From assembly GCF_006345805.1 (NCBI RefSeq), contig NC_043002.1, forward strand, positions 43,152,001 to 43,216,000: a stretch of 64,000 bases of DNA. Reading direction: 5' to 3'. Shown piece after piece: positions 1,024-46,800 of this stretch (the stretch's first letter is position 1; every line of letters begins with the position of its first letter). The position numbers and the translations under genes are program-made. This DNA is from Octopus sinensis. Taxonomy: Eukaryota. The notes under the pieces were generated by a model that was not told where the DNA came from, ran no database searches, and worked only from the letters and a program-made list of their open reading frames with translations.

Positions 1024-1413
1024 ATATATATATATATATATATATATATATATATATAATAATTTAATAAATAAAACATATGCATACATACATATATGTA
1101 CATACCTACATCTATATGTATATTTACATGCATATGTGAGTACAGGACACCACAAATAAACGTAGAACACAACGAGAAACGAAAACATAAAATCAAACAA
1201 GGAAACAGACTTTTTTTAACAACGAAAAAACAGAGTACAAGACAAACAATACAAGGAAAATTCCCCTTCATCAGCTGCCCCTGTTTCGACCCAATGCATG
1301 TTTGTAAATTTAGGGTGAATACTTGATAGGTGTAAGCACCTGTATATGCCAGATAGTGGCAGAGGTGAGAGGGAAAATATCAAATAAAATCAAAAACAGA
1401 ACACAAAGGATAT

Positions 1414-1491
1414 CGCGGTACACGTGTTTCAAGCTTTTTACATCAGTGTATAATTGATATAAAAGATAGTTTAAAGCTCTCTACAGCCACA
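1414..1491 (-). ncRNA. Degenerate type I hammerhead ribozyme (left arm of inverted repeat 1377-1505 / 4285-4429)
   Basis: Minus strand: tgtgg CTGTAGA gagcttt...aaagctt GAAA cacgtg TA ccgcg; the + copy at 4299-4392 has CGGAAGA. Confidence 0.6.
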
Positions 1492-40800: not shown

Positions 40801-43800
40801 AACAAAATACAGAAATTGTATAAGTGTTTAAGAGGCAAGCATATAGCAGGCGTGGCTGTATGGCAATATTCTTGCTTCCTAACCACATTGTTCTAGGTTC
40901 AGTCCAATTGCATGGCACCTTGAAAAGTGTATTATACTATAACCTCGGGCCGACCAAAGCTTTGTGAGTATATTTGGTAGATGGAAACTGAAAATATACC
41001 CGTCGTATGTGTGTGTATTTTTTTCCACGCCACCGCTTGACAACTCATATTGGTGTGTTTACGTCCCCGTAACTAAGCAGTTCAGCAAAAGAACCCGATA
41101 GAATAAGTATTTAGCTTTAAATAAAATAAGTCCTGGGGTCGATTTGTTTGACTAAAACCCTTTAAGGTGGTGCCTTAGCATGGCTGCTGTCAACTGACTG
41201 AAACAAATGAAAGAATATAGAAAGATTTTCAAATTATTCATCGACGAAGGAAATGAAAATATGTGATAATTATAACACCCATTCGTCATTTAACACTCGC
41301 CAACTTACTTGCCTGACACATTTATCTACAGCACTAGAACGTTTTACGGAAATGGGCTTTAAACATGCATTTTATATTTTTCTTCTGCCAATAAATATAT
41401 AAATAAATAAATACAATAAAATAAAAAATAAACAAAACAATATACCTGCATCAGGAGATTATCAATGGACTGCAAGAAAACATTGATAAATTAATTCCAC
41501 GTGGTGGCTTCTGATCTTTACAGCAGTAAATCTTAGAACTTTTTGGTACCACAATAGTTTGAAAATTCAAAGCGTTCAATGTAATTTTTTCCGGATATTT
41601 ATGAAAGACAAGACAAGATTCAGTGCGTGATCCAGTGTTCTAGTATGATCGTATCACGTATGGATTCGAATCATCGAAATAAGAGGACTTGATTGTTGAG
41701 TGTTACGTAGCACCGGTTACGAAACACGAAACACTAACTCCTCTCTGTATGTTGTTTGATAGTCTATTGAACTGGGTTCTTTGAGATTCATATTAATTAC
41801 CTAACTACGAATTGGTTTTTCTCCTGAAAAAGAACCCACAAAGAGAAGAACCCAGTGATATTAGTCGAATCATTTTATCTCGCATAAAACTATTATATTC
41901 AATATGATACAATTTGAAAGTATTTTAACCGTTATGAACTGAAAGCTTTTATGATTGCCCACATTATGTCTGAGTAATCTTCATCAAATAATTTCATAAT
42001 CTACAAATTGTTTCAATGCTTGTCACTTATGCTTTCTGTATAAATTTCCCTCTTTGAGAAATATACAAGAAAATGCTTATGATAATTTGGTATTTTTGAA
42101 GGTAATTCATCCGCAGATACTATTATTTTATAGGTGCATTCGACCGAACTCATCGAAAGAGAATAATGTTTTTGAAAGAGCTCTTGTTGAAAAGCAACTT
42201 TATTACACAGGAATCGCAGACGCTGCCGAAATATTTCAAACCGGATATCCATTCAGAAAAACATACAGTGACTTTATTAATACGTAATTATACATATTTG
42301 AATTCAAATTACAAATTTATCTCCCTTATAAATTGATATTGATGAATTCTTACTGAATCGAAATAATGATACTGAACCATATCATTTCCTTTAAATTTGT
42401 CATGTGTGTCTGACTCTGTCTTCCATATAAATCCATTCAAATCTAGAATGCTTTCTTACGGATCAAATTGAAATAAGAATATTCTCTGTCAATTGGTGGT
42501 TCATTCGCTGGCCCATGCAATCGCATTTTCTACTCAATGATTGGCCTCGTTAGCCACATTTGCCAGAAGCATTAATGGTTGAACTGTTTATTTTTCCAGG
42601 AGGAGAAATCATTACTCATTTTAGGCATAGCGATACTAATACCCTGATATTAGAACTTAATATACATATACTTCATTAAAACTCCTCTAGCTGTGCATAA
42701 CAAGAGATTAATATATATTTACGTAAGTCTTACACTCAGGTTGTTACTAGCTGGAGTACATAGACTAGTCATCTTACATAGCAGATTCATATCAAATGGA
42801 ATGCTATAATAGAGACGTTTATGACAATGCACAATTCTGAGAGTGCTTCATCAATTACTTTCTAGCGTGGCGTATATTCTTCTACGTACTAGCTTTATGT
42901 TAAAATTGAAGAGAGAATCGGTTGTTCTCCCACTTTCTATTTATCTACTGTTCTCGCGAGGTGAGTATGTAGTAACTTTTTCAGAGTACAAGTTGGAAAA
43001 ATAGTAACCAATTCATCTCTTTTAAGAAGTTTAAGATAAAACGAAATAGTATTGAAATATGTAAATAGTTAACTTTTCTATTTTCTTTTTTAACTTACTC
43101 TAGGTATACCGTGTTTTCCAAAGATTGTAAATCGATAACTGAAAAGGAAAAAGTTGAAGAAATGCTTGAAAAGGCAAACATTAATCCTAGTGATTACTGT
43201 TTAGGAAAGAATATGGTAAGATTATAGGAGTTACATGGAAAAGACCATTTTCCAATTTTTTCATGTGAAACTGTTCAGAATTTTAATCGCAAAAAATTGT
43301 CAACAAAGGAAAACATACAATAGGAACAATCTTCGATTCAATCTTAGTCGTGGATATTGTTTTGTGACACAATGCAGAACGCATATTATTATAGTAATTG
43401 TTAATATAAAACTTTCTATTGTATAACTCTCCATCTTGCCACCTAATGCTGACTCACACTACCTCTTTCAACCAACACTCCTTTCAAAGAATGAAATACA
43501 GCGTGTGAAGGAGAGCTAAGGCCGTTTTCTTCTGTATTACTACCCAACAAGAAAATAATATCGATGACTGACGGCTAAATCTACATCTAATCCCATTCAG
43601 TCGTATAAAATAAAAAACACCGAAGTTCCTGATATACAAAAAAAAAAAAGGAATGTCATTACGAAATGCCTTCCATTACAGGTGTTTCGTGTGACTTATC
43701 TATAGTTAAACGAAGACAAAACAACTAAGTTTACATCGAGCTAACGAGAAAATTCCTTTGCACAGTCACTCGACCTACTAGAAATAGAAGCTGATCTACT

Positions 43801-46800
43801 TTTATACCCTACAGAGTTATATATACCCTACAGAGTTGTATATAAGAGAAAAACAAATTGGACAACATACATACATGTGTATGTGTATGCACACATTCGC
43901 TCACGCATATATCAACAGCTTTATAGATCCATTACAGCCGATTGTACTAACCGGCTTCGCAGCGATTTTAGATAACCGGACGTTTGTGAAAGAAGTGTCC
44001 TCCTTGTAGAAGGCCGGTATGCAAAAATGGCCTCTAGTCCCATTGTGGTGGAGACACACACACACACACACACACACACGTACACGCACACACACGCGCA
44101 CACGCGCACACGCACACACACATACACTCTTACACATATATGGATGTACGTGTATGTATGAATGTATATTACATACGTGAATAGAAAATCGCGCGCGTGG
44201 TAATGTTTTACACATAATTCCAATTGATTTTTTCTTTACTCTGTTTATCTGAAAAAAGAAATCCTTCTATTTTATGTTGACAAACTGTATAACATACAAT
44301 AATTTGGAATTCATCCAACGGTCAAACGTGTTAGAAGTTTTAACTTGCTGTCTATAAACTACTTACCTTATTTTTGATATTTAATTCAGCCATATTATTT
44401 TTTCCAGATATTTATGAAAGATTCTGTGCATTTTACCTTAAGAAAAGAGCAGAAAGCGCATCAAGAAGTGATGGCATCTGAAATACAAGCGGAGGACAAC
44501 GAAAGTGATGGATCTTCAGTTATGAGTGATACTATCAACGATACACGTGAACCATCAATAGATATGTCTATTAATATCCCCGTAACAAAAGAAGAAGATT
44601 TTGATGACGAAAGTGACTACGTCGATTCTCATTTCGCAATAGAGGGACTGAAAGGATCACTAAGGAGAAGAAAAGGCTCCAAAGCTTCTTTTGTAAGTTA
44701 TTTTCAGACTGTAAGATTCATTTTTTATAATACCATTAACAAAAACTTAGTTGGTGAGATAGTTAAAACAACTGAAGAGCCATTGCAATTCATCACTGGT
44801 ACTTGACTCTTTCCTATACGAAATATACAAATGAACTCCTTATCATTACACTTGCTTGGTGTTATGGCGGGTTATATATATATATATATATATATATATA
44901 TATATATATATATATATATATATATATATATATATTTTTAATCAATATAGGGTGGCAAAAAAAATTTTGTAGAATTTTTTTGCCACCAGCGGCCTAGTGG
45001 GAAAAAATTAAATAGTCATATACCATTTTTAAGTTCAACATCACAATCAAGGAACGGCCATAATAGGCCATTCACCCACTAGAAATAACAGCCAAAAGCT
45101 TTAACCGCAAAATAACATCAATTCCGTAAACCAGGAGAAAATTTAAAAAACATTTACCCTGTAATTTCTTATACGATGCACCGTTTCGTCTACTGTTTAA
45201 TGGTAAACTAACCTGATTAAATTAAATCAAGCCAATCTACCATAGGCCCTTAGATTCATCAGTAAGAAATAGCCAAGTTGGAACAGATATTTTTCACGAG
45301 GCAGGGACGAGAATGCCTCGTGAAAAATATCTGTTCCAACTTGGCTATTTCTTACTGATGAATCTAAGGGCCTATGGTAGATTGGCTTGATTTAATTTAA
45401 TCAGGTTAGTTTACCATTAAACAGTAGACGAAACGGTGCATCGTATAAGAAATTACAGGGTAAATGTTTTTTAAATTTTCTCCTGGTTTACGGAATTGAT
45501 GTTATTTTGCGGTTAAAGCTTTTGGCTGTTATTTCTAGTGGGTGAATGGCCTATTATGGCCGTTCCTTGATTGTGATATATATATATATATATATATATT
45601 ATATATATATATATATATATGTATGTATATGTATATGTATAAGACCAAAAGGGTTCGGGCGCCGCTATATATATATATGTAAAAAACATATATGTATATA
45701 TATGTGTGTGTGTGTGTATATATATATATATATATATATATACATATAACAAATAGTGAATTATTAAACCGGGCAAAATACTTCATAAGCTCTCTGTTGG
45801 CACACGAGGCTAACAATATTACTTAGATTAGTGAAGAACGCCTAGTAATCTTTTGATAAAGTCGCAAGTCATGGTTCATCATAGTTCTTTGCTGTAAATC
45901 CGTGGATGGGTTCCAGATAAACTAGTTTTTACAAAGTGATATATTAAAAACAATGGTCATTACATATAATTCCATTATTAGAACAAATTTGGCATATATC
46001 TGTTTCTAGTAATCATTATAGGAACATTACTGATAGGTTTACTTAGTTGCTTTATTGATCAGTTGAGGGAAATTGAACGATCTAAGAAAATTAAAGCTAC
46101 TTTCGTCAAAGGCATTTCTGGAAATAAAAATCAGAGCACGAGGTACGACTATTGTGTGGGGAAGGTGGGGGGAAGACTGGGATGTTCAAGGTTCAAGTAG
46201 AATAGAGAACAGAAGACAAGTCGCAAAGGGGAGTGAGCAAGTAAGGGAGTGGTACGGGAGTCACTTAGTAGTAGTAGTAGTAGTAATAGTAGTAGTAGTA
46301 GTAGTAGTAGTAGTAGTAGTAGGAGGAGGAGGAGTATTGTATTGCCAAATTTGGAAGAGGGACCGTCACAAACATGGATCAGCCTCCATTACCATATTAG
46401 TATTGTAACCTATGTATAATGCCAATATGGTAATGAGAGCTGACCCACGTTTGTGACTGTTCCTCTTCCAAATTAGGCAATACAATACCTCTACAACAAC
46501 AACAACTACTACTACTACTACTACTACTACTACTACTACTACTACTACTAATACCAAGTGACTCCCGTACCAGTGATATCGTGGTAGTGGTTGATAATGG
46601 CATTGTCTACATCGGAGTTGTTGGCGATGGTGGTAAATGTCACTGTAGCAGTTGGTGAAGGTGTTGCTTGTATGTGCCCTTCTTGTAGTTGTTGAAAAGT
46701 TAGTGGCTGATGGCAGCAACAATCTTCAATGCGGCAAGTGAGGACTGTAGCGGTGGTTGGGGCGACGGCGGCAATAGTATCAATCACAGTCGTCATGGTG

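Follow-up and report, generated by a model that had tools for sequence, protein, structure and literature searches.

The window analysed here is a 64,000-nucleotide stretch of the Octopus sinensis genome (RefSeq assembly GCF_006345805.1, contig NC_043002.1, forward-strand positions 43,152,001 to 43,216,000). It holds exons of a chitin synthase gene and seven small inverted repeats, or fold-backs, which an initial annotation had described as carriers of hammerhead ribozymes. All seven are present. They are named by family according to their site in the window (A, 45 kb; B, 3.3 kb; C, 18.7 kb; D, 21.7 kb; E, 24.1 kb; F, 32.7 kb; G, 1.3/4.4 kb), and family P is a coding Penelope-like element (PLE) at the left edge. 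The features are listed below, "short" and "long" denoting two alternative 3' ends and "core" the hammerhead core. No strand is given where a feature comprises two inverted arms.

1 to 1022, minus strand: 5'-truncated lead copy of a partial tandem of P, with reverse transcriptase (RT) thumb, CX4CxxC linker and GIY-YIG domain (PF01541), continuing left of the window.
1294 to 4283, minus strand: long arm of G, a PLE-type 3' untranslated region (UTR) of >1.5 kb with an internal microsatellite, ending at the long 3' end; core 1486-1480 mutated.
4284 to 4429, plus strand: short arm of G, closing with the short 3' end; mutated core at 4304, stem II extended (65 nt), stem III palindromic.
3256 to 3830: inverted insertion of B; minus arm with short end, core 3370 and a 1-nt deletion in stem III; plus arm with long end, core 3606 and a weak stem I.
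17804 to 44803, plus strand: span of the host gene, a myosin-motor chitin synthase (myosin-head exons, PF00063).
18681 to 19648: inverted insertion of C, the 3' UTR of a coding PLE of Hydra type by motif; short end left, long end right; intronic.
21658 to 22133: inverted insertion of D, an old element of ~180 nt; minimal hammerhead at 21910 (plus), decayed minus copy; intronic.
24008 to 24409: inverted insertion of E, an old element of ~270 nt; its unpaired centre holds a hammerhead-like motif (24231); long end on the left, short end on the right; intronic.
32662 to 33580: inverted insertion of F, the 3' end of a PLE of Poseidon type by motif, with tRNA-like head, (AAT)n and minimal hammerhead; intronic.
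44938 to 45577: inverted insertion of A; the minus arm reaches the long end (+234) and the plus arm the short end (+134), the two meet at an internal hairpin, and (TA)n flanks either side; intronic.
45347 to 45453, plus strand: the intact type I hammerhead in A; stem I of 8 bp, core 45355-45361, stem II of 68 nt with an A.C at the base, stem III palindromic, cleavage predicted after 45445.

Each of the seven fold-backs is the hammerhead-bearing 3' end of a different PLE family, inserted in inverted, tail-out form; they are not one new class. They had been called mutually unrelated, and in a self-BLAST of the window no fold-back matches another. Their locations were right. The bounds first given were too short in A, B, C, D, E and G, each of which has an unpaired 3' tail on one side, because the window copies follow a rule of one short and one long end (D less clearly). 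Corrected bounds are those listed, with G as a whole running from 1294 to 4429 and the right bound of D approximate (~22133). The link to PLEs holds. An RT and GIY-YIG open reading frame (ORF) lies upstream of the hammerhead region in P, C and F. Most fold-backs were said to abut (TA)n; this is true of A, B, C, G and one side of D, not of E and F. A retrozyme-like set had also been proposed. This description suits A, which is tandem and non-coding, and possibly D and E, but C and F derive from coding PLEs truncated to their 3' ends. The elements belong to known kinds, and what is new is the mechanistic constraint from their paired ends and one unusual variant, F.

Each window element was used as a query against the 2.7-Gb genome assembly. 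First-look candidates numbered 1987 for A, 1313 for B, 331 for C, 163 for D, 2120 for E, 4512 for F and 952 for G, and 40 were scored per family. The first 100 of 521 exact matches to the A core form 27 clusters in genome order. Fourteen of the 27 show both strands, always minus then plus (tail-out 14/14). Mapping of the 27 clusters gives 20 two-armed insertions, 6 single-armed insertions and 1 unmapped. In 20/20 two-armed insertions one end lies at +129 to +137 and the other at +233 to +242 after the cut site, and 6/6 single-armed insertions end short. Two preferred 3' ends are found in every family. One short and one long end are paired in 14/14 P insertions, 8/9 B insertions and 11/11 F insertions resolved among 30 head-selected loci. 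Together with A this makes 53/54 resolved two-armed insertions (p = 3e-15 against 0.5). The same pairing is seen in G (3/3), in the window copies of C and E, and in sets chosen by similarity (A, 14/16; another F set, 10/11). Omitted from the end counts were L273 (no match at a 90% filter), L256 (none at 85%) and loci with an unresolved end (P, L163 and L190; A, L223; F, L290, L293, L299, L301 and L304); duplicate loci were counted once.

The arms are often not nested. Neither contains the other in at least 14 insertions of A, B and P (A, L247, L248, L252 and L261; P, L269, L270, L271, L279 and L183; B, L036, L040, L041, L054 and L055), nor at several F loci. In these 14 or more the short-ended arm extends further 5' and the long-ended arm has the tail; therefore neither arm is a copy of the other. 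The inversion point of A differs at every locus, mostly with 0-5 nt of overlap or a short fill. The fold-back is therefore made at insertion and is not a spreading unit, contrary to the initial view that it is the element itself. Across 256 units from 48 insertions, A arms differ by 0.9% if they belong to one insertion and by 3.9% if they belong to different ones; at shared variable columns the figures are 3.7% and 33%. A pile-up of inner ends of A long arms at the short site was looked for and not seen. In (TA)n flanks any target-site duplication is masked.

Because nearly every insertion has one short and one long end, separate copying of the two arms from RNA, starting at two fixed points, is likely. 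The 53/54 pairing, the common haplotype of the arms and the non-nested arms argue against simple snap-back and for paired priming. We consider it probable, on the strength of these sequence comparisons, that the inverted insertions are built during insertion by PLE RT priming from both nicked target strands, at a short and a long RNA start site. The GIY-YIG endonuclease would nick both target strands, usually in (TA)n (step 1). One RT would begin at the short site, where single-armed copies usually end as well (step 2), and its partner would begin 35-150 nt further 3' (step 3). The two cDNAs would then be joined by microhomology or short fill (step 4). For A, the template would be a hammerhead-cut 492-nt monomer or multimer, and arrays would probably arise from it by circular reading. 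Tandem or free transcripts would be where the hammerheads work, probably dimerised by the palindromic stem III; in host read-through RNA each would be silenced by pairing with its mirror arm. The genome contains an active PLE family, P, whose ORFs are intact. Both RTs working on one RNA is easier to reconcile with strict pairing, because independent RNAs should often give two short ends, the commoner end. A more specific model is put forward tentatively, as a possibility that falls short of an even chance. Here an asymmetric RT dimer would prime both strands from two fixed sites on one RNA, giving tail and inverted arm in three PLE clades and the retrozyme; hammerhead-cut RNAs would be the template in vivo; and F would be an RNA polymerase III, tRNA-headed short interspersed element (SINE) mobilised by PLEs.

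Several observations weigh against paired priming. Four insertions break the rule: A L030 and B L039 are short+short, and A L239 and F L132 are long+long. The P and B loci were picked for their similarity to the window, and six of the P loci for having matches on both strands. A common haplotype shows that two arms have a common source; it does not prove that they came from one RNA molecule. BLASTN of A against P and other loci gave no common segment apart from one 34-nt match. The internal heterogeneity of some long A arrays is not accounted for by a single monomer circle. Finally, 6/37 distinct A junctions are near-symmetric (1.9 expected), mostly where an internal hairpin lies, and short snap-back palindromes occur at many F heads. 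Self-priming therefore also occurs. In this process, related to the model of Arkhipova et al. 2013, the 3' end of the cDNA folds back and is copied into the second arm. It would account for the near-symmetric hairpin junctions, the window copy among them, and palindromes are reported at inverted junctions of rotifer PLEs (PMC3846280). The non-nested arms of A, B and P rule it out as the sole route, and 31/37 A junctions are asymmetric. As the general explanation it is unlikely.

Less probable still is that the fold-backs are discrete non-autonomous elements, spreading as palindromic units and able to cut host pre-mRNA. In favour of this reading, the hammerheads exist and three of the families (A, D and E) have no coding sequence. 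However, the scatter of A junctions refutes fixed units, C and F continue upstream into PLE coding sequence, and the hammerhead stems vanish once whole insertions are folded. The last point bears on the host gene, whose identity as a myosin-motor chitin synthase is confirmed by PF00063 and by synthase motifs 19-52 kb beyond the window (L326, L329, L330). On the plus strand its myosin-head exons span 17.8-42.3 kb, which places C, D, E, F and A in introns and B and G ahead of the first exon found. In equilibrium predictions the A hammerhead folded alone forms, with a stem I probability of 0.8-1.0, and those of D and E do not fold even alone. In whole insertions the hammerhead stem probabilities are 0.00 in 5/5 elements (A, B, C, D and E). 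The fold-backs had been suggested to form double-stranded RNA and to cleave the host pre-mRNA. Long double-stranded RNA is plausible; self-cleavage is not favoured, and cleavage of chitin synthase pre-mRNA by intronic hammerheads appears unlikely because the fold-back is predicted to bury them.

Two further explanations are very improbable. Two independent insertions in one (TA)n hot spot, or later gene conversion, could give inverted pairs, and nested insertions do accumulate in (TA)n tracts here (H2 and B within G); yet the orientation is always tail-out (14/14), the junctions are free of (TA)n, no insertion mixes the three A subfamilies, and short ends are paired with long ones. Artefactual fold-backs made in assembly at (TA)n hairpins would fit an assembly with many homopolymer indels, a perfect 6391-7065 repeat centred on (TA)n and an L239 that looks doubled, but not arms that are asymmetric, that have diverged by 10-25% in older elements and that have family-specific ends.

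Inverted-insertion architecture has been described since 2013-2014. Endonuclease-bearing (EN+) PLE insertions are reported with a hammerhead in the pseudo-long terminal repeat (pLTR), 5' truncation, partial tandems, an adjacent inverted 5'-truncated copy, a one-sided tail and a (TA)n bias (Craig et al. 2021, PMC8557442; Arkhipova et al. 2013, PMC3846280). How PLEs make tandem and inverted insertions is called undefined in Craig et al. 2021 (PMC8557442). The window families share the inverted 5'-truncated partner and the one-sided tail. Tails of 30-40 nt are given in these two accounts (PMC8557442, PMC3846280); P and F fit, whereas those of A, B and C are ~100-150 nt and those of E and G ~60-90 nt. 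Further differences from the EN+ PLE reports are that the one-short-one-long pairing (53/54) is near-obligate, not merely frequent, and that many arm pairs are not mutual copies. In vitro, the Anolis Poseidon PLE cleaves and extends both strands of an AT-rich target, with two adjacent internal RT start sites and a modelled dimer (Frangieh et al. 2024, PMC11167929). Two RT start sites, use of both strands and an AT-rich target recur here, as deduced from insertion ends. That study (PMC11167929) reports no difference in start site between the strands and no homology to the target. Here, in contrast, ends are paired per insertion and short ends often lie at 2-7 nt of TA-like microhomology. In the literature outside subscription, Repbase and Dfam, we found no description of these families, of twin priming in PLEs, of the paired-end rule as mechanism or of a tRNA-headed PLE; the supplementary lists of PMC8557442 may include relatives. 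The end rule (one short, one long, arms not nested) is a constraint that any biochemical model of PLE insertion must reproduce, and the published in vitro system could test it. The genome also supplies a young matched pair, autonomous P with intact ORFs and the 96-100% identical retrozyme A.

The type I hammerheads with palindromic stem III are confirmed at the family level. A strict type I descriptor has three matches in the window (+21910, +45355 and -45262, the last being the mirror copy of the A hammerhead) against a mean of 0.025 and a maximum of 1 in 200 dinucleotide shuffles of the window. The other window copies are decayed. A core had been claimed in every fold-back; this stands for both arms of A and the plus strand of D, while the G and F cores are mutated and that of E is weak. 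Counting core, GAAA and UH, with at most 3 copies per strand per locus, the motif is intact in 68/69 complete copies of A, 27/29 of B, 15/25 of C, 8/23 of D, 35/49 of F, 15/20 of G and 1/17 of E. The U3-A8 hammerhead in the pLTR of P is found in 32/34 copies. For E the hammerhead assignment is weak, with UUGAUGA (U3.G8) in 13/17 copies (loci L102-L120), and this family may have spread with a weakened ribozyme. An Rfam scan of the window gave no hammerhead family among the best 150 of 169 matches, only microsatellite and hairpin miRNA noise, and scans of 9 further loci gave no hammerhead match; minimal and long-stem forms may fall outside the models. Covariation was counted in A only, where subfamilies differ by two compensatory changes, in stem I (U-A to C-G, 101 versus 43 of 157 units) and stem II (A-U to G-C), which represent few independent events.

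Minimal PLE hammerheads are described as type I, with a palindromic stem III, an extra base at stem II, a U3-A8 variant (reported in Schistosoma) and opposite-strand pairs 100-700 bp apart (Cervera & de la Pena 2014, PMC4209133). The U3-A8 of P conforms to this account (PMC4209133). The 60-70-nt stem II extensions of A, B and G, the A.C at the stem II base in most A copies and the U3.G8 in most E copies do not. In A the A.C may lower activity. Arm 5' ends lie just after the predicted cut in F (5/25 at 0 to +3) and in A (7/87 at +1 to +12, 2.1 expected, p = 0.006, for an interval chosen after looking). This enrichment is a hint that cleaved RNA is used as template.

Family A is a non-LTR retrozyme by its non-coding tandem units, each with a type I hammerhead. 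The monomer is 490-494 nt (~492), with no open frame above 47 aa, and arrays have 1 to at least 16 units. Its 23-nt core pattern has 521 exact genome matches against 0 for a control pattern. Three subfamilies coexist, and copies are young. Retrozymes have been treated as PLE derivatives (Cervera & de la Pena 2020, PMC7229834; Li et al. 2026, bioRxiv 10.64898/2026.07.22.740005). A resembles the animal non-LTR retrozymes of these reports in its low-GC tandem monomers, dispersal and PLE association. It differs from the mussel units described there in length (492 versus 350-390 nt), and no matching autonomous pLTR was found. Unlike in those animal retrozymes, PLE-type inverted insertion ends are directly visible in A, which points to de novo insertion of arrays, not only local expansion. 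P could be the mobiliser, a fit of age and (TA)n target only. Rolling-circle copying finds support in two arrays in which all 7 units are fixed for private variants, a point weakened by other arrays that are mixed. The predicted circular fold of the monomer has z = -5.7 versus 60 shuffles. Contigs of 4 of 24 listed runs, with RNA status unrecorded, cover 29-30/30 A monomer bins with end-to-start joins; circle and tandem are indistinguishable in them, and they were not used as evidence. One array (L223/L331, C27) has at least 16 units of 500-510 nt with recurring variants and ends at an N run; it is possibly a locally expanding satellite or a source locus.

The coding families appear to fall in three clades by motif: P with a Neptune-like linker, C in Hydra, and F Poseidon-like without linker. 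P has 19,141 first-look candidates, the best 150 at 96-100% identity, and intact 784-aa RT and GIY-YIG frames in several copies. The sequence at site 137, initially read as a PLE remnant, is therefore not merely a remnant; it belongs to this young autonomous family. The pLTR hammerhead of P lies outside the window, and the tandem is seen in L220. A 437-aa open frame without Pfam match (L211:4105-5415, plus strand) immediately precedes the RT frame and overlaps it; it may represent an ORF1 of its own, an N-terminus displaced by a frameshift or a leader that contains an intron. C runs upstream into a GIY-YIG ORF with CxCX5C, CxxC and CxH motifs, which are those given for the Hydra clade (PMC8557442). 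Both of its window cores, 18832 (minus) and 19395 (plus), are damaged.

F runs upstream into a linker-less Poseidon-like RT/GIY-YIG ORF. The 3' UTR of this PLE harbours a tRNA-like head (32720-32787) that bears motifs resembling A and B boxes. The window core of F at 33453 is mutated, and the left arm (32662-32720) has no core and begins 11 nt past the cleavage site. A CTGATGA at 33002 belongs to a nested unrelated repeat (~32820-33377). A 25-nt head pattern has 1362 exact genome matches. Among 30 head-bearing copies (L283-L312), 22 start within -20 to +1 of the head and 8 continue into PLE sequence. A run of four T is absent from 9/9 scored copies, ARAGORN and Rfam found no tRNA in F, and a hairpin at the head position could equally stop RT. 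That F is a PLE-mobilised tRNA-headed SINE is possible from its sequence. Counterparts with a tRNA-like head or a hammerhead are the tRNA-derived SINEs and the Schistosoma SM-alpha repeats. F differs from both in that its head lies within a coding PLE and its insertion ends are PLE-type.

B and G have long pyrimidine-rich 3' regions (3' UTR), and no ORF was reached upstream in the loci examined. The long arm of G is broken by later insertions at 2639-3168 and 3256-3830, so the 2.8 kb first read as a spacer is its own 3' UTR plus these two insertions. The CTGATGT of G is not its core; the true one, further upstream, carries mutations in both window arms (4304, plus; 1486, minus). D and E are short and old, with clustered 5' ends and no RT/GIY-YIG ORF seen adjoining. 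The window copy of D has an extra segment of ~85 nt in both arms, absent from 19 other copies. Tandem monomer arrays of B-G were not found in the loci examined.

Two other pieces had been noted as PLE-related:

6391 to 7065: tail-out repeat of a GIY-YIG fragment, perfect, centred on (TA)n, without hammerhead; 62-69% protein identity to P.
46860 to 47520, no strand assigned: old low-copy repeat with a GIY-YIG-like motif by eye only; halves inverted relative to other copies.

The first is symmetric about (TA)25, unlike other insertions, and could be a cruciform-derived duplication or an assembly artefact. For the second, tblastn with three PLE queries gave no match at 46860-47520. A decayed PLE GIY-YIG fragment, 39% identical to P, lies at 48424-48750 (minus). 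An eighth family, an inverted pair with intact type I hammerheads in both arms, is seen at L222:4572-4879. Repeats at 1059-1290 and 2670-3168 (minus) were rejected as hammerheads: they have CTGANGA with GAAA only upstream, none downstream, and no hammerhead can be drawn. They form another (TA)n-associated family. A window scan also found inverted repeats without a CTGANGA core at 46250-46572, 15488-15737 and 8314-8897. A young non-LTR element at 50525-53524 (minus) has a 1000-aa open frame with RVT_1 and zf-RVT, with related pieces at 54394-55612. Pieces related to this element and the repeat 32820-33377/53558-54149 insert into (AAT)n tracts, including that of F.

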